Below, piece after piece: positions 18,410-33,252 of a stretch of 64,000 nt of DNA. Numbering within the stretch: the stretch's first letter is position 1; every line of letters starts with the position of its first letter. Source of the DNA: Akkermansiaceae bacterium (lineage in GTDB: Bacteria > Verrucomicrobiota > Verrucomicrobiia > Verrucomicrobiales > Akkermansiaceae); contig JAFLSS010000003.1 of NCBI GenBank assembly GCA_022510805.1, forward strand, positions 1,323-65,322. Reading direction: 5' to 3'. A model generated the notes under the pieces. It made no database searches. It was not told the DNA's origin and was given only the letters and a program-made list of their open reading frames with translations. Made by a program: the position numbers and the translations under genes.

Positions 18410-18973
18410 TCAGGGCATGGGGCTGATGCGGATGACTTCCACTAACTCCTCCTCGCCAGAGGAGCCCTTAATGCGTATGATGCCGCCGATGAGCGCTTTG
18501 CCCTGCACGCGCCATGTCATGCGCATGTGTACCGCGCCCGTGGCCACAGGATACAGCAAATGCAGCGCGGGGTATTCATCATCTGCCGCAGAATCCATCT
18601 CATACACCCCGTATAACGAATGGCGCCGCCCGCTGCATACACAGGCAAAGTGAGTGTCATCCAGCCACATGATTTGCTGTGTGACCTCCGGCGCCTGTAC
18701 ATTGACATGGAAGCAATAAAAGAAGCGCACTGCACCATCTGCCTCCTTTAGCGCGAGGTAATTATTCCACTCGGAATTATTCCCGTCGCGATGGAACACG
18801 ATGATGCGCTGCCCCTTCGAGTTCGGCTCGGAGATGAGCTGTATCTCTTTCTCTTGGATGGGGGCGGTGAGCTCTTGCAGGCACTCGGGCGTGAAGCGGG
18901 GCGCTTTCTCATCCGCTGCCGGGGCAAGCGCGACCAAGAGCATGGCGCCTATGGCACAAATGTACTTTTTCAT
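18410..18973 (-). CDS. Secreted hypothetical protein
   Basis: 187 aa with signal peptide MKKYICAIGAMLLVALAPAA. No family recognised. Confidence 0.6.
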   Translation of the reverse strand: MKKYICAIGAMLLVALAPAADEKAPRFTPECLQELTAPIQEKEIQLISEPNSKGQRIIVFHRDGNNSEWNNYLALKEADGAVRFFYCFHVNVQAPEVTQQIMWLDDTHFACVCSGRRHSLYGVYEMDSAADDEYPALHLLYPVATGAVHMRMTWRVQGKALIGGIIRIKGSSGEEELVEVIRISPMP

Positions 18974-18991
18974 GGGGAAAAAACCGGTAGA

Positions 18992-19999
18992 TTATTTTTT
19001 GACAGGTGGTTTTGCTTTCAGCGGCACGGCGTGGAAGGGCTGCGCCGGGGCGCCTTTGTGCTTGGCGGGGTTCATGGAGGAGATGTGCTCGGGGGTGATG
19101 GTGAAGGTGAAGGTGCCGCCTTTGGCTTCATCTTTGGCATCGAGGATGTGGTCGAACACGCAGACGGGTTGGTTGCCCTGTGTCTCGGGCATCACAAAGA
19201 GGCCGATGCCCATATTGGGGTGCTCTTGGCCGGAGCGGCTGTTGCGGATGGTGTAGGTGATGGTGTTTTTGCCACGGCGCAGCCCGCCGGAGATGGTGTC
19301 GGCCCGGCGCTCATCATCAAACTCATGGAGGGAGACCCCATTGATGCGCATCTCGATCTCGCGGCCGGGGCAGTCCACAAACACCTTGCCGATGAGCTCA
19401 GGCGCGGCGCAGGCAGGCGGCACAGAGGGGAGGCTGGTGTAGGGGTGGAAGCCATCCTGCTCACGCAGCACGGTCAGGTCATGCTCTTTCAGGCGCTTGA
19501 GCACGGCAGGCAGGCGGCTCAGGTCAAAAAAACGCGTCTGGTCAATCTTCCAGCGCCCGTCCTCATTCACCATGAGCACCACAAAGGCGTTGTCGCTCGG
19601 CTTGCCGTCACCCAGCTGCATCTTGCCGATGAAGGTGGCAGCCAGAGTCTTGCCGCCGCAGGCGCCCAAGGCGCCCACGAAGTGAAAGTGCTCCAGCTGG
19701 GGGGCTTGCTGAGCGCTGCGGAAGAAATCTCGGGGGAAGGAGCCGCGCTCGGAGATGATGAGGTTGCGCACGCGCATCTGGCGGGAGGCCGTGGTGTTGC
19801 GGCGCCAGGAGATTTCATCTCCCCGCTGCACGCTGAGGCGCCAGGTGTTGTACACCGTGTCCACCAGAGATCGGGCTTTCTGCTGATCAGGGGTGAGCAG
19901 GGCGGGCGCTTTCTCCGGGGAGGCGGAAGATTGAGCATGGGCTTGCAGGGCACCCCCGCAGGCCACCAGGGCGGACAAGGTCAGAAAAATGGCTCTCAT
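18992..19999 (-). CDS. Secreted hypothetical protein
   Basis: 335 aa with signal peptide MRAIFLTLSALVACGGALQAHA. No family recognised. Confidence 0.65.
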   Translation of the reverse strand: MRAIFLTLSALVACGGALQAHAQSSASPEKAPALLTPDQQKARSLVDTVYNTWRLSVQRGDEISWRRNTTASRQMRVRNLIISERGSFPRDFFRSAQQAPQLEHFHFVGALGACGGKTLAATFIGKMQLGDGKPSDNAFVVLMVNEDGRWKIDQTRFFDLSRLPAVLKRLKEHDLTVLREQDGFHPYTSLPSVPPACAAPELIGKVFVDCPGREIEMRINGVSLHEFDDERRADTISGGLRRGKNTITYTIRNSRSGQEHPNMGIGLFVMPETQGNQPVCVFDHILDAKDEAKGGTFTFTITPEHISSMNPAKHKGAPAQPFHAVPLKAKPPVKK

Positions 20000-20064
20000 G
20001 GCTCCTCTAACCTTACATCAGACTTGCCAATGTGGCAAGAAAATTGCATACTGTAGGGCAGGTT

Positions 20065-22549: not shown

Positions 22550-23650
22550 TTATTTGGAAATGGGGGAGTCCTTGGGGACTCCTAATGCCCAAAATGCTTT
22601 GGCGCTCTTGGCAGTCACGCCGTCCATGGCCAGGTAGCGCGTGCGGAGGAGCTCCAGAGAGGTGTGCCCCATATCAACCTGTAGCGCTGTCAAATCCTTG
22701 AAAAACTTTAGGTGATAAGAGGCAAAGGTGTGGCGCAGGATATCGGGCACCCAATCTGTGCACCCGGCTTCCTGCCGCAAGTTGTACCAGCGCTTGGCCC
22801 ATGTGCGCGGCACGATGGGAGCGGAGGGGGTGAAGTAATACATGCAATTGCGCAGCCAGTAAAAGAGCGGGGGGTACATGGTGACCTGGCGCGCGCCACC
22901 TGTTTTGGCATGCGCGGCGGGGATGGTGATCACCCGGTCTTCGAAGCTGATGTCGCTCTGGTGCAGGCGCAGGATCTCCGTGGGGCGCACGCCGGCCCAG
23001 AGCATGATGCCCAGCGCCGGCGCACAGGCGAGGTGGCGCTCCAGCAGGGAGGTGCGCAGCAGCGTGCTCACCTGCTCGATGGTGAGCACGCGGATGGGCT
23101 GCTCCTCATAGGGCGGCAGCACCACCAGATCCAGCGGGTTCGTGTCGCACCAGCCGTGGAGCCGCGCGTAGGAAAAGAGTGAGTGCAGAATCCGCCGCGC
23201 CTTGCGCCGCATCGGCACGGTCTTGAACACATACTCGATGCTGTGCTGGCAAAAATCTGAGGAGATCTCATTCATGCGCAGCCGGTTCCACTCCGGCATC
23301 TCGGCCACGAGGCGGTTGCACATCTGGCGCACTTCCTCAAAGGTGCGTGATTTGACGCTCGATTTGTATGTCTTATACCCGCGCACCGCTTCTTCGAAGG
23401 TGACGCTGCGCTGTGTCTGCTCAAAGGCGCACACGCCCAGCTTGATCACATGCCGGCAGTGCGTGAGCACGTTGGACATATCTCCCCCGCCCTCCCCCGG
23501 ACACTCCTCGAGCAACTCCATGATGAGCCGCACTGCATCTGTCGATTGCAGCTGCACATCCTTGAGCAGAAAATCAGCGGCTGTCTCATTAGACGTAATG
23601 ACAGTCTTGAGTTCACCCAAATCCAGAGGTAAGTCGTCGCTATTGCACAT
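22550..23650 (-). CDS. Tyrosine-type site-specific recombinase/integrase
   Basis: 366 aa. The catalytic set is present: AGVRPTEI (Arg), LRHTFAS (His-x-x-Arg), MGHTS (His) and RTRYL (Tyr). Confidence 0.85.
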   Translation of the reverse strand: MCNSDDLPLDLGELKTVITSNETAADFLLKDVQLQSTDAVRLIMELLEECPGEGGGDMSNVLTHCRHVIKLGVCAFEQTQRSVTFEEAVRGYKTYKSSVKSRTFEEVRQMCNRLVAEMPEWNRLRMNEISSDFCQHSIEYVFKTVPMRRKARRILHSLFSYARLHGWCDTNPLDLVVLPPYEEQPIRVLTIEQVSTLLRTSLLERHLACAPALGIMLWAGVRPTEILRLHQSDISFEDRVITIPAAHAKTGGARQVTMYPPLFYWLRNCMYYFTPSAPIVPRTWAKRWYNLRQEAGCTDWVPDILRHTFASYHLKFFKDLTALQVDMGHTSLELLRTRYLAMDGVTAKSAKAFWALGVPKDSPISK

Positions 23651-23773
23651 TGCGTACTATTCTACCTCTTTTTTTTCATTTCATCTACAATATCAAAAAA
23701 TTTTTTTTTAGATACTGAATATCAAAGCCTCAAAATTTGACCCATTTTAGCAAAACGTATCCGCCCCTGCATT

Positions 23774-23848
23774 TTTGCGCTCCAAAACACCCTTGCAAAA
23801 CGGCTGCAGCTCGCTTGTGGAGCGGGTTTGCGGCGTTTTGGGCGCAAA
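23774..23848. repeat. Imperfect inverted repeat in the TerL-integrase spacer
   Basis: TTTGCGCTCCAAAAC (23774-23788) faces GTTTTGGGCGCAAA (23835-23848). Nested partial inverted repeats surround a CTGCAG core. Confidence 0.5.
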
Positions 23849-23880
23849 TGAAGGGATGTGAAAAAATGCGAAAAAAAGCC

Positions 23881-25494
23881 TCACATGCGTGCTAAGCGCG
23901 GCGTATGGTGCAGAGTAAGAGGCACTACGAGACCGTGGCTAAGAGCCTCGGCAAACATGCGCGCAGCGTCGGCGCTGTGTGAAAATGCATCATGCACGGG
24001 CACTTCGCGGACTGCGCCTGAGGCGCCGGGCGGGGCGGTGTGGTACATCTCCAGGCAGGTGAGCCCGGAGGGTTCTTTGTCACCGCGCGGGGAGAGGCGC
24101 ACCGCCAGCGTATCGCGGTGAAACCAGCTCTGCGCGAGCAGGCTGCGCAGGGTGTTGATCCCGCGCCACACATCCGGCGTGCGCGGCACCACACGCACCG
24201 CGGAGATGCCGCAGTGGGCCAAGCTCTCCACATAGGACTGGCCGTGCGGGTCGCGGTGGGCGGCATCATGCGGCAGGAAATGCGCGCCGATGCGGCCGTA
24301 GCGCTGCTCCCACTCGTGGATTTTGGCGGCATAATGCTCAAGGGGGAGCTGATTGGCCGCGTAGTGGTTGAGCCAGTAGATCTGCCCGCCGTAGCGCTGC
24401 ACCAGCCAGATGGCCGTGTGGTCGCTCAGGCCGAGATCCCACGAGGTGTAGAACGGCTCAGCCGGGTTGGGCTCAAAATCCGCCCCCACGCGGCCTTGCT
24501 CGCGCAGCAGCGCGATCTGCGAGCCGTAGATGGCGCCGTCATTGCCGGTGGAGAAGGCCTCTTGCGGGGAGGAGGGGTACTCTTGGCGCATGGCAGCGCC
24601 CATCATGCGCTCCATGCGGGCATACCAGAGCTTCTGGCCGTGGCTCAGGGAGATACCGCTCTCGGACTCCAGCTTCTCGAAATAGGCCGCCAGCTCATCG
24701 CTCCACCCGCGGTGTGAGCCCGAGAGGCTGTAGTCCGGGTTGTCAAACCAGCTGAAGAAAAAGAAGCGAAAATCCAGCGGCGAGAGCCGGTGATCCTTGG
24801 CGTTGTTCTCCATGGCGCGCAGCAGCATCTCGTAATTCACGCCGTAGCGGCCGCCCTCATGGGTGCTCTCGAGGATGATGGTACCCTCTGCCGGCACGGT
24901 GTTGATGGCGCCGGTGCGGATTTCTCGGGCGCGCCACGGGGCGTGCACTGACACGTGTGCCAGCTCTGACACGTGCAGCAGCTGGAGGGTGCCGCCGCGC
25001 AGGGTGGTGCCGAGCCGCACATCGCTCCCATTGCTGAAGCTGAGGCGGGAGCGCGCATCGGAAGGCAGGCGCCACTCACCCCGCTTCTGCACGCCGGAGC
25101 CCTGCTTGATGAGGCGGCCGAGCAGGGCGAGCGCCTGCTCGGAGGAGTCAGCGGAGGGAGGCGCGTAGTCGAGGTGCTCCCACGCGAAGCGGATTTTTTC
25201 GAGCTTCTGCTCGGCATCCGGCAGAGTTTTGTCGATGATGCCTGCGTGGAAATTGGGCGTGAAGAGGCAGCGGTCGAGAATCAGCATGGCCACATAGGTG
25301 GAGATGCCGAGCTGGCGCGCTTTGAGGATGGCATTGCGGTGCCACAGGCAGCGGTGAAGCCGCAGCTGCGCGGCATTGAGCGTGAAGCGCTGCAAGTGGC
25401 CGGCTTTATTCTCGATCCAGTAGAGGTGCTGGAGGCGCCAGAGCGGGTCTGCCAAGCGCTCACGCAGGGCGGGGTGTTGGAGGGAATCCATCAT
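23881..25494 (-). CDS. Phage terminase large subunit (TerL)-like protein
   Basis: 537 aa. ATPase motif ILKARQLGISTY is preceded by LNAAQ. The RNaseH-like nuclease part has WDLGLSDHTAIW, HDAAHRD and HDAFSHSADAARM. The start overlaps the stop of the giant ORF (ATGA). Confidence 0.8.
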   Translation of the reverse strand: MMDSLQHPALRERLADPLWRLQHLYWIENKAGHLQRFTLNAAQLRLHRCLWHRNAILKARQLGISTYVAMLILDRCLFTPNFHAGIIDKTLPDAEQKLEKIRFAWEHLDYAPPSADSSEQALALLGRLIKQGSGVQKRGEWRLPSDARSRLSFSNGSDVRLGTTLRGGTLQLLHVSELAHVSVHAPWRAREIRTGAINTVPAEGTIILESTHEGGRYGVNYEMLLRAMENNAKDHRLSPLDFRFFFFSWFDNPDYSLSGSHRGWSDELAAYFEKLESESGISLSHGQKLWYARMERMMGAAMRQEYPSSPQEAFSTGNDGAIYGSQIALLREQGRVGADFEPNPAEPFYTSWDLGLSDHTAIWLVQRYGGQIYWLNHYAANQLPLEHYAAKIHEWEQRYGRIGAHFLPHDAAHRDPHGQSYVESLAHCGISAVRVVPRTPDVWRGINTLRSLLAQSWFHRDTLAVRLSPRGDKEPSGLTCLEMYHTAPPGASGAVREVPVHDAFSHSADAARMFAEALSHGLVVPLTLHHTPRLARM

Positions 25495-28400
25495 TCTTTA
25501 TCTTTCTCTTCTGCTTCTTCCTGGGCTTTTAATCGGCGCTGGCGGGCGTTCTCACTGCGCTCACCATACTTGCGGATGCGGGATTGGCGGCGTTTTTCCT
25601 CAATGGCCTGCCGGGCGGCTTCCTCAGCAGCCTGTAGCTCACGGATGCGCGGCATCGGGTCTTCGAACTCAGCTTTTTTGATGCGGAATGGGGTGGCCAA
25701 CGGGTCGAACGGCCTCTTGGCCTTGGGGTTCTTGCGCCGCTCTTCTTCCTCCGCAGCGCGGATGGCTTCTCGGCGGCGCCTCTCGGCACGCTTGGCGCTC
25801 TCGCTCTTGCGCTTTTCCTCCTCCGCGAGCCGCTTGGCCTCCTCCTCCGGATCCGGCTGGTCAAAGGAGCGCCGCGTCTCGTCGATCACCTGATCCAAGT
25901 GATTTTCCCACGCCTGCTTTCTGGGCTGAGCTTTGCCCTGCGTCTCCACTGCCTCCGGCTCCTCCTGCTCTGCCCGGGCAGCTTTTTTCGCCGGGGCTTT
26001 CCACTCCTCCTGCAGGGTAGAGGGGCGCAGGTGCAGCTTGCGGTTGCCCGCCAGCTTGTCGTTGGAGTAGGTGAGCAGGGAGTAGAGCGGGCGCATCTTG
26101 GCATCCTTGTCGAGCATGCGGGCGGTGGTGTCGACCAGGCGCCGGAGCTCGGCGCGCGGCTTGGGCGCGCAGACCACATGCACCATGTCGCTGAGCATAT
26201 TGACCAGCGAGGCCTCGCCCATGGTGAGGCTGCCGGGCTCTGCCTGCTCCAGGGATTTGGAGAAGCCGCTATCCTCAGCCAGGCGCATGAGATACTCCTG
26301 CATGTAGGTCGTGTGGTAGTCCGTGAGGCCACTCTCGAGGGCGCTGGTGGCGATGCGGTTGATCTGCGTGAGATTGTGGCGCAGCGCCAAATCAGCCCAC
26401 TCGCCACCCTGGCGGTAGTTGTCGCGCTCGCGGGAGCGGTAAAAGAGATGCAGCGGCGCCACACTGTTGGCACCCAGCTCCTGGTCATTCTTGATCACCT
26501 CATAGCTGTCCATGTACATCCCATTGCGGCATTGCACCACGTAGGGCAGGCGCAGGTTCGGGTCACTCAGGTTGATATTGCCCGGCATGAGGCGGTACAC
26601 ATGGGAGCGGTCCTTGTTGTAGCGGTACACGGTGACAGAGTTGATGAGCGGGCTGAGATCCAGATCCGGCGAGATGCCGCGCACGCGCACACCGCACACG
26701 TTGAGCTTGCCTCCCTCTGCGGCGCCCACACTTTGCAGCACGCGCAGCAAGGGGGAGATCGGCAGCTCGATGGAGTAGTTGCGCTCCAGCCCGGGCGGTG
26801 TCTTGCCGTGCAGGCCGCCGTAGGCATCGCCATTCCAAAGCACGCCCTCCTGGGTGGAGCGCGGGTAGTTGATGGCGGCTTGGCGCAGCTCATCCAGCAG
26901 GCCGAGGTAGGACTTGGCGTGCGGCCGGGAGAGGAACTCAGGCAGCTCATCCAGCACGGGCTCGTAGGTGCAGCCGGGGGAGGTTTCCCAGCGGTCACCC
27001 CGGCGGGCGAAACTGCCGGCAGACTCCGGCACGGCGGGCACATCATCCTGCAAGCTGATGCGCAGCAGGCGGGATGTGCCGCCGGCGCCGGCCATGCTGT
27101 AGGCGTGCATCTCCGGGTGTTTTTGCAGCATATCGCCGAGCATACCCATCACCCTATCCACCGAGATATCCCCCTGCTTGTTGCGCCGCAGGGTGGAGAA
27201 ATACGGGTCCTGCTCGCAGTAATCAGCCACAGTATCGTAGAGCATGTTGTAGTGGTAATCCCCCAGCAGCTCGCGCTTCCAGCCGGCGCGGGGGTGGGCG
27301 AGCATGTACCAGAACCCGGCTTGCGGATTCTGCAGCCCCTGGTCCCCCAGCGCGCGGAAGCACCACCCGCGCTCGCAGTTGATATCCTCATTCTCGCCAA
27401 AGGCATCGCTGAGGATGGGGTCCATGAACTCATCCGGGCGGACCTTGGTGCGCGCGGCCTCGATGGCGTCCGACCAGCTGCGCAGCTTCTCAGCCGTGCG
27501 GCGGTTGGCCCAGCTGGCCAGGCGGCGGTTCTCCTCTTCCAGCTTCACGACGGGTGAATTGCGGCCGCGCCCGCGGGGGTCTATCTCCGGCTTGGGGCAG
27601 AAGGCCGACATCCCCACCCACAGTTTCACGGATTCCGGCACATCCAGCTCTTGCATCTTTGCCAGGTAGCGCACGGTGGTGTACTCTGAGAGCGCATGCG
27701 CCACGCTGGTGATGACCTCCTCATTGGGGTTAGACTTGCTCATGCGCTTGGGGATTCTGTAGAGGGGGCTAGCCAGCTGGCTATTGGGCACGCGCACATC
27801 ATCCTCGCCGAGGGCATAGCCCTGCTTCTGCAAGAACTCATGCGCCCGCAGCGGGGTGATCACATGGCTGCGCAGCTGGCGCAGCCAGTACACAAAGAAG
27901 CGCGTCTGCATGAGCGCCAGCGGCGACACGCTCGAGGTGCTGTCCACATCAAACACCGTGCTGCCATTGAGCGCCTCACTCTGCACGATGCGGGGAGTCA
28001 CGCTATCATCCGCCCCGGCATCGGCAAAACCGCGCAGGAAATGCCTGTAGGCCGCCATGTTGATACCGGGCACCAGCTTGGTGGCGGTGGAGCCCCAGAG
28101 GCGCGTGAGATCCTCTGTCGCGTCCATGCTCAGATCATCATGCAGGCAATAGCCCTCCTTGTGGCGCAGGCGATACGGCCCCGGCAGCTGCGACGGGCGG
28201 TTGATCTTGGCCAGGCGGTTCAGGTCGATAGGCGCCTGCTTGGGCAAGAAAAACAGGTGCGCATGCCCCACCAGATCATTCTCTGCGGGCTCTGCGGCGG
28301 GATACCAGCCGGTGTAGGAGCCATCCGGGCGCTGATCACGCGTGTAGGTCACGCCATCGGACTCCTCGCTCTCGGGGTGGTAATTGGTGAGCTGGCGGTA

Positions 28401-31325
28401 GTGCTTGAGGCTGGCGGATCTGGCGATGGGCTCGAAGGCGATGGGCGGCGTGTCGAACTTGCGGCCGTTGTTCTCCCAGCCTTGCATGATGAGCTCCTCA
28501 GACACACCCAAGCCCTTGGCAAGCAGGCGCCCATAGGCCTGCACCGGCGTGAGCCCCTCCACCAGCGCTTGGTGGTACTCTTGCGTGCAGGGAATGGCTT
28601 CCTCCATCTTTTCAATGGTGTCGCAAAGGCCGATGAGCACCTGCTGTGCGCTGAGCTCCTGCCGGCTTTTGACCAGCTCTTGAGCAGCTCGGCTGAGGAT
28701 GGTGTTTTCCTCTTTCCCATGGGGCGGGGTGGCCGACTCTGCCAGCGAATCAGGCGCCTCACCGCCGAATGCGCGTATACTGGTCGGCAGGTAGTCGAAG
28801 ATCTCCTCCTTGAACACGGCATCCCGCGCCTCACCGGCCATCGAGCGCACGATCGTGCGCGCTACTTTGACCAGCAAGTTTCTGCGGTCGAGCTCCACCA
28901 CCTTGCCCAACTCCTCAGCCGGCATAGGATTGCGCACGAGGGTGTCCATGGTATGGAACGCGAGGGCGTGGCGGTATGAGAGCTGCTCAAGCTGGCGGAA
29001 ACCACCGGCCGCGTAGGAATCATAATCTGCATGGGGCGACAAGCGGTAGCTGGCCTCCGCCTGCTCCGAGCCGGCGGCATGCTGATCCGGCAGCTCCGGG
29101 AGGGGCTCTGAGCCGAAGCCGGCGCGGCGCCACCATTGTTCGTAGAGGGAGCGCACCTGCTGCGTGCGCTCATGAGAAGCCGCGCGTATCTCCTCCGGCC
29201 AAGGGATGCCAGCCGACTTCTTCTTGGCAGATGAGGCGGGCGCCGGCAGCTTGAAAAACTCCCGCGCCGTCTTCTTATCCCAGAAGCCGCGGTAGTCCTC
29301 AATCCCCAGCAAGCGGAGCGCGCGCAGCGCGTATTCCGAGAAATCCACACTCTCAAACACCTTGCTCTCGTTGAGAGCCTTGTAGAGCAGCTCCGACCGG
29401 CGCGCCACATCCGGCTCCGCCAGCACCTCCGCGCGCTTCTCTGCGCTGATCCCGAGGCGCTCCATCATGGTGCCATCCCCGAGCACCGCGCGCTGTGAGC
29501 GGAAGTGCTGCAGCCCCAGTTGGCCGGAGCGCAGCAGCAGATACGGCAGCAGAGCCGCCGCCTCGTGCATGTTGCTCTCAATATCCGTCACATTGTCGCC
29601 GAAGCTCTCCCAGTCAATATTGGACGCCACGCCATTCACCCGCGCGGCCATCTCCTGCATCCCCAGCGCGCCGGCGTGCGACAACTTGCCTGCGGTGTAT
29701 TGCTTGAGCATCTCCTCCATGCCGCCGGCAGCCGTGAGATTCAGCGCGCCTATAGAATAGAGCGCACCCTTGCCGCGCGCCTGCGCAAAGCGGCTGATAC
29801 CGCGCTCCATGAGCTTGCCGCCCACCTTGTTGATCCCGGTGTAGATACCTGTTTGCAGCGCCCCGCCCAGCAGTCCGGCAAAGAACTGCAGCTCCTGGCG
29901 GCCCTGGGGCGCGCGCTCACGCGCCTCAGCCACCGCATCGCTCACAGAGCTGAGGGTGACCGCCGCGAACCCGGGCGCGCCGCAAAAACTCAGCACCGTG
30001 CTCGGCACACTCTGCGCCGCGTCCAACAAGTAGGCCGAGTACTCGTTCTCCTTGCCGGCCTGCACCAGCGGCCGCAGCTCCTCCTGCGAGAAGTGGCGCA
30101 GCTTGTTAAACACCTGCGACCTCTTGTCCCAGGCGTTGGCCAGCTCCTCAGCCCCGCCGACACCGGCGGCAGAGCTGTAGAGATGCAGGGAGCTGACACC
30201 CAGCTGCGAGAGCACGCGGTACATCCCGAAATTCATATTGGCAACACCGCGGCGCGAGGCCTGCATCATGCGCGTCACCAGATTCGGCACATCACTCTCC
30301 ACTTTCTTGTCCTGCGCCATGCCGGCGGCGAGGTAGAGCACCGTGTAGAACTCCGGCTCATCCAGCTCTGCCAGCTCATCCACCGCGCGCACCAGATCCG
30401 GCACCGCACCCGCCATGCGCGGCAGGAAAAAGGCATCTTCCTCCAGCGCAGAAAAAGCCTCCAGGCCACGCGTCACCCGCGCCGCCAAATCCTTGTAGCG
30501 CTCACGCGCCGCCTGCCCCTGGCGGAAAGCCTCCTCCGCCAGCTTGGCAGACTTGCCGGGCTTATCCTGGCCGAACAAGCGAGACGCCGTCTCCAGCGTC
30601 AGCGGGTGCATACCATCCAGCGCCGCCATATAACAGCGCTGAGCAATATCGCGCGCCATCTCGCGGATCGGCTCCTGCTCCTCCTGCTGCGAAAGCGCCA
30701 GGAAGAGCTCCTCCTCATTATCGCGCACACCAAAGCTGCGGGTGAGCTCCGCGCGGCGCTGCTTCCAGCGGGCATGCACCTGCTCGCGGGTATCGGAGGA
30801 GTGATCCACCACCCACGAGCGATTCAGCGTGCGCAGCATGCGGTACTCCCGCTGCTCCTCGGGCAGGTTCCACTCATCCGCCCCGGTGCGCTGCCGCACC
30901 TCTGCCGGCACAGTGGAGGGATCCCCCGTGAGTATGGCTCGCCAATACGCGCGCTTGCGGCCGGCAGCAGCGGCATCTGCCGCCTCTGCGGCGGCGGGTG
31001 GCTCCGGCTCAGCAGGCGCCTGCTCAGCAGGGGCCGGCGGCGGCTCCTCCGCGCGCTGGGGCACAGCGGGGGCCTCATCCTCCGGCTCATCCTCATGAAG
31101 CGGCGGCTCCGGCTGAGCATCTGCCGGCTCATCAGGCAAAGCATCTGCCGGCTCTTCCGGCAGGGAATGCGCCTCCTCAGCAGCAGGCGGCAGCTCAGCG
31201 GCGGCATCATCAGCAGCATCAGCGGGCGGCAGCTCAGCGGCAGCATCAGCGGCGGCAGGTGTATCAGCGAGGCTCTGCTCCGGCTCGAGCAGAGTTGTCG
31301 GTTGGTGTGTCATCGTGTCCATCAT
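25491..31325 (-). CDS. Giant hypothetical protein (about 1,944 aa), no recognisable domain
   Basis: Uninterrupted 5.8-kb ORF. The listed start 31334 is a TTG; the first ATG is at 31325. It has an acidic Pro/Ala-rich repetitive N-terminus and a Lys/Arg/Glu-rich C-terminus. Confidence 0.8.
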   Translation of the reverse strand: MMDTMTHQPTTLLEPEQSLADTPAAADAAAELPPADAADDAAAELPPAAEEAHSLPEEPADALPDEPADAQPEPPLHEDEPEDEAPAVPQRAEEPPPAPAEQAPAEPEPPAAAEAADAAAAGRKRAYWRAILTGDPSTVPAEVRQRTGADEWNLPEEQREYRMLRTLNRSWVVDHSSDTREQVHARWKQRRAELTRSFGVRDNEEELFLALSQQEEQEPIREMARDIAQRCYMAALDGMHPLTLETASRLFGQDKPGKSAKLAEEAFRQGQAARERYKDLAARVTRGLEAFSALEEDAFFLPRMAGAVPDLVRAVDELAELDEPEFYTVLYLAAGMAQDKKVESDVPNLVTRMMQASRRGVANMNFGMYRVLSQLGVSSLHLYSSAAGVGGAEELANAWDKRSQVFNKLRHFSQEELRPLVQAGKENEYSAYLLDAAQSVPSTVLSFCGAPGFAAVTLSSVSDAVAEARERAPQGRQELQFFAGLLGGALQTGIYTGINKVGGKLMERGISRFAQARGKGALYSIGALNLTAAGGMEEMLKQYTAGKLSHAGALGMQEMAARVNGVASNIDWESFGDNVTDIESNMHEAAALLPYLLLRSGQLGLQHFRSQRAVLGDGTMMERLGISAEKRAEVLAEPDVARRSELLYKALNESKVFESVDFSEYALRALRLLGIEDYRGFWDKKTAREFFKLPAPASSAKKKSAGIPWPEEIRAASHERTQQVRSLYEQWWRRAGFGSEPLPELPDQHAAGSEQAEASYRLSPHADYDSYAAGGFRQLEQLSYRHALAFHTMDTLVRNPMPAEELGKVVELDRRNLLVKVARTIVRSMAGEARDAVFKEEIFDYLPTSIRAFGGEAPDSLAESATPPHGKEENTILSRAAQELVKSRQELSAQQVLIGLCDTIEKMEEAIPCTQEYHQALVEGLTPVQAYGRLLAKGLGVSEELIMQGWENNGRKFDTPPIAFEPIARSASLKHYRQLTNYHPESEESDGVTYTRDQRPDGSYTGWYPAAEPAENDLVGHAHLFFLPKQAPIDLNRLAKINRPSQLPGPYRLRHKEGYCLHDDLSMDATEDLTRLWGSTATKLVPGINMAAYRHFLRGFADAGADDSVTPRIVQSEALNGSTVFDVDSTSSVSPLALMQTRFFVYWLRQLRSHVITPLRAHEFLQKQGYALGEDDVRVPNSQLASPLYRIPKRMSKSNPNEEVITSVAHALSEYTTVRYLAKMQELDVPESVKLWVGMSAFCPKPEIDPRGRGRNSPVVKLEEENRRLASWANRRTAEKLRSWSDAIEAARTKVRPDEFMDPILSDAFGENEDINCERGWCFRALGDQGLQNPQAGFWYMLAHPRAGWKRELLGDYHYNMLYDTVADYCEQDPYFSTLRRNKQGDISVDRVMGMLGDMLQKHPEMHAYSMAGAGGTSRLLRISLQDDVPAVPESAGSFARRGDRWETSPGCTYEPVLDELPEFLSRPHAKSYLGLLDELRQAAINYPRSTQEGVLWNGDAYGGLHGKTPPGLERNYSIELPISPLLRVLQSVGAAEGGKLNVCGVRVRGISPDLDLSPLINSVTVYRYNKDRSHVYRLMPGNINLSDPNLRLPYVVQCRNGMYMDSYEVIKNDQELGANSVAPLHLFYRSRERDNYRQGGEWADLALRHNLTQINRIATSALESGLTDYHTTYMQEYLMRLAEDSGFSKSLEQAEPGSLTMGEASLVNMLSDMVHVVCAPKPRAELRRLVDTTARMLDKDAKMRPLYSLLTYSNDKLAGNRKLHLRPSTLQEEWKAPAKKAARAEQEEPEAVETQGKAQPRKQAWENHLDQVIDETRRSFDQPDPEEEAKRLAEEEKRKSESAKRAERRRREAIRAAEEEERRKNPKAKRPFDPLATPFRIKKAEFEDPMPRIRELQAAEEAARQAIEEKRRQSRIRKYGERSENARQRRLKAQEEAEEKDKE

Positions 31326-31339
31326 AAGAAACAAAAAAA

Positions 31340-32584
31340 TTAGGAAAGAGAATCAGCCTCAAAGCAAACCCAGCGGTCCGACAAGCGGCGCAGCTCATGC
31401 ACCCACTGCGCCGCGCCCTCGCGCCCGCCCTGCTCCAGCCGCGCCAGGCACTCCTGCTGCAAATCCGCAAGGTGCCGCTGCGCCGCCGCATCCTCCGGGC
31501 AGCCCAGCACCCCATCCCGGTACAAATCCTGCACGCTGCGGCTGAGCAGCAGGCGGTCCTGCGCCGGGAGCCGCAGACTCTGCTCCACCCGCCCCAGCAA
31601 GCGGCGCTTATCCTGCGCCGGCAGCGGCGCCGTGGCGATGGCGAGTCGCAGCTGCTCAGCTGAGGCCTCATCCTCCGGGCACTCATTGGCCCGCTGCACC
31701 CAGTGGTTGAGCTGCGCCGGCGAAAGCTCGGCAGGCGCCTGCTGCAGCGCCGCCTCCGCCTGCTCGCGGGAGATCACGCCGGCCCGTGCAGCGAGATCCA
31801 GAAACTCCGGCTCGGGCGAGAGCTCATTCTGCAGGCAGTACTCCAGATCCTGAAGCACCTGTTTGCGGGCAGAGCGCCGCGCCACCCCCTTGGCCTGCTC
31901 CAGGCGGCGGGCATCTGCCTGCCGGCGGGGGAGCGCCTCCTCTGCCGCCTCTGCCAGCGCGCCCAACCCGCGCAGGGGTTCCACCTCCAAATCCTGCTGC
32001 CAGCGCGCCAAATGCGCCCGGCTCTCCGCCTGCTCATTCTCCTCCTGCATGCCCTCCTCCGGCACAAAAATACCCTGCCCGGCCTGTAGCCACTCCTGAG
32101 CCTGCACCACATTCCCCTGCTCGACAGCATCATCCACCCGCGCCCGCCACTGCGAGCGCGCCCGGTCAATCTTGCGCAGCTCAAAATCCCGCTGCGCCTC
32201 CACAGAAGCGCGGGCGCTATATGCATCTGCCAGCTTGCGGCCGGCGGCGCGCGCCTCCGGCGAGAGCTCCTCGATGGCCTCCGCCAGCTTGGGCGCAGAG
32301 GCCGCCTGCCAGGCGTAATTCCAATCTTGCACCTCCTGCTCCGCCAGCTCATCGCGCGTTTCATGGTCAATCGACTTGAGACGCTCCGAAAAATCAGCCA
32401 GCTCCCCCATCGTCGCCACACGAGCACGCTCCTCCAGCACCTTAGCCCCGCCCATCAGCGCGGCAGAAATACCCTCTCCCATGCGCCGGGCGGCATCAGC
32501 CCAGCCTGTGAGACCATCTGTCGGCACGTGCACCCCCCGAGAGGGCTGCCCCATCATGCCCCATTCTTTCATGCGGATTGACAT
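31340..32584 (-). CDS. Hypothetical, predicted all-helical Ala/Glu/Arg/Gln-rich protein
   Basis: 414-aa ORF ending 14 nt upstream of the giant ORF ATG. No family recognised. Confidence 0.7.
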   Translation of the reverse strand: MSIRMKEWGMMGQPSRGVHVPTDGLTGWADAARRMGEGISAALMGGAKVLEERARVATMGELADFSERLKSIDHETRDELAEQEVQDWNYAWQAASAPKLAEAIEELSPEARAAGRKLADAYSARASVEAQRDFELRKIDRARSQWRARVDDAVEQGNVVQAQEWLQAGQGIFVPEEGMQEENEQAESRAHLARWQQDLEVEPLRGLGALAEAAEEALPRRQADARRLEQAKGVARRSARKQVLQDLEYCLQNELSPEPEFLDLAARAGVISREQAEAALQQAPAELSPAQLNHWVQRANECPEDEASAEQLRLAIATAPLPAQDKRRLLGRVEQSLRLPAQDRLLLSRSVQDLYRDGVLGCPEDAAAQRHLADLQQECLARLEQGGREGAAQWVHELRRLSDRWVCFEADSLS

Positions 32585-33102: not shown

Positions 33103-33252
33103 ACCCGCATTCTAAGCCGCAGAGCCCAAGCTGTCAACCCAACTTATCCGCCCGGTAGAGCCGGCTCATGCACCGCCCGCCGCGGCCGGGCTGCCGGGAG
33201 TGGCTGCAATTTGGGCTTGATTGTCTGCGGCTTGTTTTGTATATAAACGCTC

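Follow-up and report, generated by a model that had tools for sequence, protein, structure and literature searches.

Large terminase subunits are regarded as enzymes of virion assembly that act only at the portal vertex, and a bacterial chromosome that keeps one with no portal beside it raises the question of where such an enzyme came from and what it is kept for. The case considered here lies in a 64,000 nt stretch of DNA from an Akkermansiaceae bacterium (NCBI GenBank assembly GCA_022510805.1, contig JAFLSS010000003.1, positions 1,323 to 65,322 of the forward strand; hereafter the window), in which a gene for a large terminase subunit (TerL) is preceded by an uninterrupted gene for a protein of 1,944 amino acids (aa), the giant, and this in turn by a gene for a protein of 414 aa, p414. 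We favour, with a probability that we put at roughly 0.6, the view that this trio is a domesticated ejection-protein/terminase module of a T7-like podovirus, a statement that covers its origin, its identity and its domesticated status. The domestication of a phage polyvalent or internal virion protein is an event of a known kind; what is unexpected is a terminase conserved without a capsid.

Phage relatives of the three genes

The TerL gene (window positions 23881..25494, minus strand; 537 aa) matches Pfam Terminase_6C at 3.6e-5, above cutoff, as well as phrog_2, and a tblastn search returns 642 phage records at ~35% identity over 96% of its length (E ~1e-60). The ATPase motifs are intact, with a Walker A at K58-T66 (KARQLGIST), a Walker B LHVSE (E177) and an ESTxEG motif, and so are the acidic residues of the nuclease (D353, D358, D410 and D509), whose motifs read WDLGLSD, PHD and SHSADAAR in the window (family form WDxGxxD, PHD and SHxxDAxR). 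The catalytic motifs (KARQLG[IF][ST]T, LHVSE, ESTxEG and those of the nuclease) do not vary when the Akkermansiaceae copies are compared with three phage TerLs, and judged from its sequence the 537 aa protein is a genuine TerL, complete with an N-terminal ATPase of the ASCE type and a C-terminal RNase H-like nuclease. Its relative in one phage contig (L065) is 42% identical (E 1e-115), closer than any GenBank phage, and the closest IMG/VR TerLs are 49-50% identical. A large gene that overlaps the TerL start in these IMG/VR contigs was considered as a parallel to the trio and rejected, having no match to the giant or p414 profiles; as far as it can be read, it resembles a tail nozzle protein that follows a capsid-like protein. 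Insertions at TerL residues 131-150 and 469-480 were likewise dismissed as adaptations to domestication, being present also in the phage TerLs of contigs L065, L070 and L074.

The giant gene occupies 25491..31325 on the minus strand (1,944 aa plus stop; ATG at 31325, TGA at 25491-25493), where the first-pass annotation had placed it, and it is a real gene: by our own arithmetic, stop codons should make up ~2.7% of all codons given the base composition, and a frame that stays open for 1,944 codons would arise by chance with a probability of ~1e-22, and the GC content at its third codon positions (GC3) is 0.81, equal to that of neighbouring host genes. If translation began instead at a TTG codon at 31334, the protein would have 1,947 aa. 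Where homologues of the trio genes have been named by NCBI the name is 'hypothetical protein', and both the giant and p414 have zero matches in Pfam, PHROGs and PADLOC; a Pfam scan of 47 giant homologues, each taken as two halves, gave scattered chance matches only and no shared family. The earlier statement that the giant has no recognisable domain thus holds for the curated libraries. It does not hold in the sense of an orphan protein, since residues ~160-653 are homologous to giant proteins of podoviruses.

This relationship comes from an exhaustive HMMER search in which a profile of giant residues 121-960 was run against a library of 1.84 billion representative proteins. It returned ~70 full-length members of the giant family together with proteins of 2,200-3,300 aa that match the N-terminal module only (E 8e-20 to 1e-14); a word-indexed protein search gave eight giant relatives only, and its repetition with a profile of 47 sequences added none to these nine proteins. 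When the giant family and the phage giants are aligned as profiles with hhalign, the probability is 99.9% (E 6.6e-32, 468 columns), and giant residues ~160-653 pair with residues ~112-605 of the phage proteins. The first-pass annotation had held that a confident profile match to a known family over most of the length would refute its reading of the protein; what is found goes part of the way, extending over about one-quarter of the length, and the family matched is itself uncharacterised.

The contigs that carry these relatives are T7-like structural modules of uncultured podoviruses, in which the genes run in the order portal (Head-tail_con), scaffold, Phage_capsid_2, tail proteins (phrog_394 and phrog_376), an 'internal virion protein' (phrog_418), a protein of 490-680 aa and the giant. 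This order corresponds to T7 gp14 - gp15 - gp16, with a small internal virion protein, a medium-sized protein and a giant standing after the tail tubular genes; in a prophage of another Akkermansiaceae genome (L150) the slot of the small protein holds a T7_gp14 match. The protein just upstream of the phage giants also has its counterpart in the trio. The p414 gene (31340..32584, minus strand) encodes an alpha-helical protein, which is found ahead of the giant in all related loci of sufficient length, and hhalign relates its family to the proteins in the gp15 slot with a probability of 92.4% (E 5.2e-7, 235 columns) and common motifs. Contig L065 holds all three types of gene, TerL coming first and the portal, the internal virion protein, the gp15-slot protein and the giant further downstream, and because the TerL type, the p414 match and the giant match are found together there, a common podovirus source is indicated for the three. 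On these comparisons the trio goes back to a single temperate lineage of T7-like podoviruses, the giant being the putative descendant of a very large internal virion protein of the gp16 position, polyvalent-type in its phage relatives, and p414 that of the gp15-position protein just upstream. The source lineage is uncultured: tblastn searches of GenBank phages with the giant N-terminal module and with the phage giants gave zero matches, and a giant profile scan of IMG/VR viral contigs found no family member.

The podovirus giants of the gp16 slot (P0150, P0155, P0156 and P0158; loci L061-L063 and L065) thus share with the window giant a homologous N-terminal module of ~500 aa and a homologous upstream partner of the p414 type, and in one contig a TerL of the same clade. 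They differ in being 2,200-3,300 aa long and in lying inside a full portal-capsid-tail module, whereas the window giant has its own family-specific C-terminal ~1,000 aa and is encoded in a host chromosome, with TerL as the next gene downstream. Among the seven distant phage relatives that were scanned, Pfam finds LPD37 in one (5.9e-29) and ART-PolyVal in one (2.6e-16), with LPD3 just below the cutoff in one; LPD and ART-PolyVal are the domains by which polyvalent proteins are recognized (Iyer et al., 2017; PMC5512222). The window giant resembles these proteins in its very large size, its phage origin and the LPD and ART-PolyVal domains of its relatives, and host genomes that acquire polyvalent proteins from mobile-element remnants are the third context described for them (Iyer et al., 2017). 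It departs from their defining feature, the possession of two or more disparate domains, in that Pfam detects no effector or LPD domain in it or in any of the 47 family members. The phage or conjugative-element context applies to its distant relatives only, the window locus being chromosomal with osmC and oprB flanks, and conservation across a bacterial family together with a TerL is not described by Iyer et al. (2017).

Retention in the Akkermansiaceae

In the window the trio forms an operon in the order p414 - giant - TerL amid housekeeping genes. Its upstream flank contains osmC, rmlD, rpsI/rplM, infA and hrpA; downstream a tyrosine integrase gene is followed by oprB, an esterase gene, trmB and genes for shikimate dehydrogenase, an amidase and bioB, and the remainder of the window is also housekeeping in nature (transketolase, ArgRS, BamA and Mfd). 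The first-pass annotation implied a setting of phage packaging, and this is not borne out: there is no portal, capsid, small terminase subunit (TerS) or tail gene in the window or within the 10 kb flanks on either side of more than 50 related trios, and no tRNA gene, Rfam match or att-like flanking direct repeat is found at the window locus. The locus is not a prophage.

A scan of one genome per species gave 54 loci, nearly all of them in organisms labelled Akkermansia sp., Akkermansiaceae or Verrucomicrobiales; the genomes are almost all metagenome-assembled (MAGs) and come from animal guts. The p414-giant-TerL order is kept in every one of these that is long enough, as well as in L001-L003 and in L147-L149, where the full-length members that diverge most are found. 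The trio has no other consistent companion gene, and the housekeeping flanks differ between clades. The overlap of the giant stop codon with the TerL start, noted in the earlier annotation, is an ATGA at 25491-25494 (minus strand) in the window, and the TerL concerned is a true one; the two genes overlap in 46 of 50 related loci, through the same 4 nt ATGA in 19 of the 46.

All three are functional genes, since the ratios of non-synonymous to synonymous divergence (dN/dS, NG86) show purifying selection: 0.03-0.06 for TerL, 0.10-0.22 for p414 and 0.09-0.22 for the giant. Identities to the window proteins are 66-84% for TerL, 31-60% for p414 and 24-37% for the giant, and the giant and p414 change 4-10 times faster than TerL. 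Codon-position GC content and codon usage of the trio are host-like. In syntenic pairs of loci the dS of TerL equals that of the flanking host genes, which indicates a long vertical residence. The two upstream genes, p414 and the giant, have evidently been exchanged at times for divergent alleles, because in some pairs their dS lies far above that of TerL and the flanks: 1.2-1.6 against 0.03-0.45 in the pair L045-L055, and 1.3-1.5 against 0.64-0.76 in L013-L044. In L002/L018 synonymous divergence is raised in the giant only.

A distant sister family consists of giants of 1,750-1,850 aa (P0149, P0151, P0157, P0165 and P0181; loci including L064 10001-15244 and L146 2533-7941), of which P0149 matches both the N- and the C-terminal giant profiles. 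Several individual loci are also of note. The sole disrupted trio that we saw is L051 (2522-17329), with ~8 kb inserted between the giant and TerL. One MAG, JAZRJB01, contains two trios (L034 and L056) with giants 47% identical, either through two strains binned together or through a true duplication. L150 (GCA_028342645.1, Akkermansiaceae) is an apparently complete T7-like temperate prophage, with YqaJ/RusA recombination genes, TerS, TerL, portal, scaffold, capsid and tail genes, the T7_gp14-like gene and a 734 aa gp15-slot protein.

What the trio may do

If the trio is a domesticated module, its history would begin with capture by an ancestor of a large Akkermansiaceae clade, followed by vertical inheritance among housekeeping genes under purifying selection. 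The products of p414 and the giant may still form a complex, as phage core or ejection proteins do, through the conserved N-terminal module, in which amphipathic Gly/Ala helices would take part, and possibly at a membrane; the family-specific C-terminal ~1,000 residues of the giant would stand in for the effector domains found in the phage proteins, and the co-translated TerL would supply ATP-driven translocation and cleavage of DNA. A conserved enzyme beside fast-evolving, recombining partners suggests a resemblance to conflict systems, and our guess is that the trio acts against phages or other DNA of foreign origin, for example in exclusion or defence. In its most specific form this proposal is tentative and, taken as a whole, rather doubtful: a capsid-less cellular machine would have been built from a phage TerL and ejection core proteins, without portal or capsid, and would act either as an anti-phage system, in which a fast-evolving sensor or decoy derived from the ejection proteins turns TerL, as nuclease and translocase, on invading DNA or on the packaging of that DNA, or as a TerL-driven DNA conduit.

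Several observations weigh against a domesticated ejection-protein/terminase module, or against parts of that view. The link to the phage proteins covers only ~25% of the giant, and the label 'ejection protein' would rest on gene position in distant phage relatives. T7 gp15 and gp16 themselves have no sequence, profile or fold similarity to p414 or the giant, which resemble no solved structure either, and the lytic transglycosylase domain of gp16 is not found in the giant with Pfam, so that the equivalence is positional only. Neither a canonical transmembrane helix nor a signal peptide is found in the giant by hydropathy. The AlphaFold2 models of the giant were built from nine sequences only, and that of residues 121-960, although all-helical, is poor (predicted template modelling score, pTM, 0.36). 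No PADLOC-DB defence model matches the giant, TerL, p414 or the integrase. The sister giants P0149 and P0151 are solitary amid housekeeping genes, with neither TerL nor p414, so the giant may not need TerL and may act independently of it. Finally, we know of no terminase activity without a portal and of no precedent for a TerL that lacks a portal ring.

Two of the alternatives concern the status of the locus. The trio could be a decaying prophage remnant, functionless debris beside an integrase, and the phage ancestry of all three genes and the tyrosine integrase directly downstream of them in the window and in L001 are what such a remnant would leave. Inert debris is nevertheless strongly disfavoured, and in our view excluded by the selection acting on these sequences, as dN/dS is well below 1 for the three genes; moreover, the 5-6 kb open reading frame is intact in essentially every locus, gene order and the stop/start overlap persist between lineages so far apart that synonymous sites are saturated, and the integrase is absent from nearly all loci, as are att-like repeats and a tRNA gene from this one. 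Hardly more probable is a phage satellite or similar minimal mobile element, equipped with a TerL and cargo proteins of its own and dependent on capsids hijacked from a helper podovirus. The differing chromosomal contexts of the trio among clades, the adjacent integrase in two loci and the evident exchange of p414 and giant alleles would fit such an element, while the agreement of TerL dS with that of flanking host genes points to vertical descent, no replication, regulatory or excision genes or att sites are present at the loci, codon usage is fully host-like and the giant family is missing from IMG/VR viral contigs.

The other two alternatives accept a function and differ as to which. TerL and the core proteins of T7-like phages both work at the portal vertex, and the trio could be one locus of a dispersed particle system resembling a gene transfer agent, whose genes for portal, capsid and tail would lie at other chromosomal sites, with TerL filling the heads and p414 and the giant loaded as core or ejection proteins. 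Like gene transfer agents and other domesticated prophage modules the trio is phage-derived, vertically inherited and under purifying selection, an intact and strongly constrained TerL is what such agents keep, and T7-like prophages with related portals do occur in the Akkermansiaceae (L150). We consider this unlikely, given that the trio keeps three genes only, with no structural gene within 10 kb of more than 50 trios or in the window, and no TerS; the window TerL shares no more than 34% identity with that of prophage L150. A weaker point against it is that relatives of the L065 portal are rare singletons in clusters of 1-6 members, against 237 members in one TerL cluster, so that there is no sign of a portal conserved across the family. 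Less likely again is a capsid-less device that translocates DNA on behalf of the cell itself (to take it up, to export it into vesicles or biofilm, or to process the chromosome), with p414 and the giant as an ejectosome-like conduit and TerL as its motor. Core proteins of the T7 type form a DNA conduit that spans the cell envelope, the hydrophobic Gly/Ala segments of the giant are conserved, TerL is a DNA pump-nuclease with intact motifs and the translational coupling is strictly conserved. The lack of transmembrane helices and of a secretion signal, and the want of precedent for a motor working without a portal ring, tell against such a device, and the speed and the allele replacement with which p414 and the giant evolve fit conflict better than housekeeping transport.

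Under the preferred reading, that of a domesticated podovirus module, a TerL has been kept through the whole Akkermansiaceae radiation, at a level of conservation typical of housekeeping genes and with two descendants of ejection proteins as its sole partners. Limited literature searches gave no report of a TerL kept with ejection-protein derivatives alone, and nothing on the trio locus in work on Akkermansia and terminases or prophages. A TerL so kept would imply an undescribed cellular use of a phage DNA motor or nuclease. The relationship also provides a first evolutionary anchor for a family of 'hypothetical proteins' of ~1,800 aa and defines an N-terminal module of ~500 aa that is common to giant internal virion or polyvalent proteins of uncultured podoviruses. 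Should the trio prove to be a device for defence or DNA transfer, it would bear on phage resistance and gene flow in gut bacteria of therapeutic relevance.

Architecture of the giant and other features of the window

The composition of the giant is as the first-pass annotation described it, with an acidic Pro/Ala/Glu tail at the N terminus, Gly/Ala-rich segments within and a Lys/Arg/Glu tail at the C terminus. The N-terminal tail (residues 1-120; 30966..31325, minus strand) consists of 29% A, 21% P, 17% E and 10% D and has a net charge of -31; the C-terminal tail (residues 1790-1944; 25494..25958, minus strand) contains 20% E, 17% R, 14% A and 10% K. In an alignment of 47 homologues the core that is kept comprises residues ~121-1745, the first 120 aa and the last 150-200 aa not being conserved, and the gap fraction over the C-terminal tail is 0.45-0.94. 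Both tails are lineage-specific appendages. The C-terminal one looked to the first-pass annotation like a nucleic-acid-binding or coiled-coil tail, but a segment that almost all homologues lack cannot be central to a conserved function.

Within the core, the N-terminal module shared with the podovirus giants (residues ~160-653; 29367..30848, minus strand) contains the motifs NRSWVVDH, ASNIDW..FGDN and LPxxLxxxGxxxLxHFRS. The most hydrophobic of its conserved Gly/Ala-rich segments, both in the window protein and in the family average, covers residues 443-461 (29943..29999, minus strand); two others, also recognized by hydropathy, cover residues 481-499 (29829-29885, minus strand) and 590-608 (29502-29558, minus strand). 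These segments are moderately hydrophobic, the best 19-residue Kyte-Doolittle mean being 1.45 as against a usual transmembrane threshold of 1.6, and the region around residues 443-461 is of low confidence in the AlphaFold2 model. The family-specific region that follows (residues ~750-1745; 26091..29078, minus strand) is mixed alpha/beta in its model and has the invariant motifs EQGWC, CGV, RLMPG and PYVV. It has no detectable relative outside the bacterial giants, and hhalign finds no similarity between it and the phage giants. The AlphaFold2 model of residues 900-1760 is fair (predicted local distance difference test score 69.7, pTM 0.64). The first-pass annotation had proposed that segments of the giant be modelled and compared by Foldseek, and that profiles be run against Pfam and PHROGs; this was done and yielded no known fold or family, Foldseek giving no match at E < 0.3 in PDB or BFVD for the giant models. 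When PDB was searched by sequence and by profile, neither TerL nor the family alignments of the giant, p414 and their phage partners gave a meaningful match.

Upstream of the trio, osmC is immediately preceded, at 33109-33137 on the minus strand, by a sigma-70-type promoter close to the consensus (TTGACA-17-TAGAAT, 11 of 12 matches), and no such promoter scores in the 110 bp gap between osmC and p414; the trio may therefore be co-transcribed with osmC. Downstream, the tyrosine integrase (22550..23650, minus strand; Pfam Phage_integrase and phrog_1) is outside the conserved trio and forms a separate transcription unit with its own AT-rich upstream spacer of 230 bp (22550-23880 in all). It adjoins the trio in two loci only, the window and L001. 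In L003 the integrase is absent and the block from bioB to oprB is inverted relative to the window, which places the integrase at an inversion boundary.

Two further genes of the window lie away from the trio. At 40-1674 on the plus strand a 544 aa gene with matches to GmrSD_C (8e-25) and DUF4268 occupies a segment of low GC content (44.6%, against ~63% elsewhere); it probably serves in type IV restriction or in defence and arrived by horizontal transfer. A 421 aa open reading frame with host-like codon bias and no Pfam match lies at 18791-20056 on the plus strand, with trmB on one side and the esterase gene on the other.

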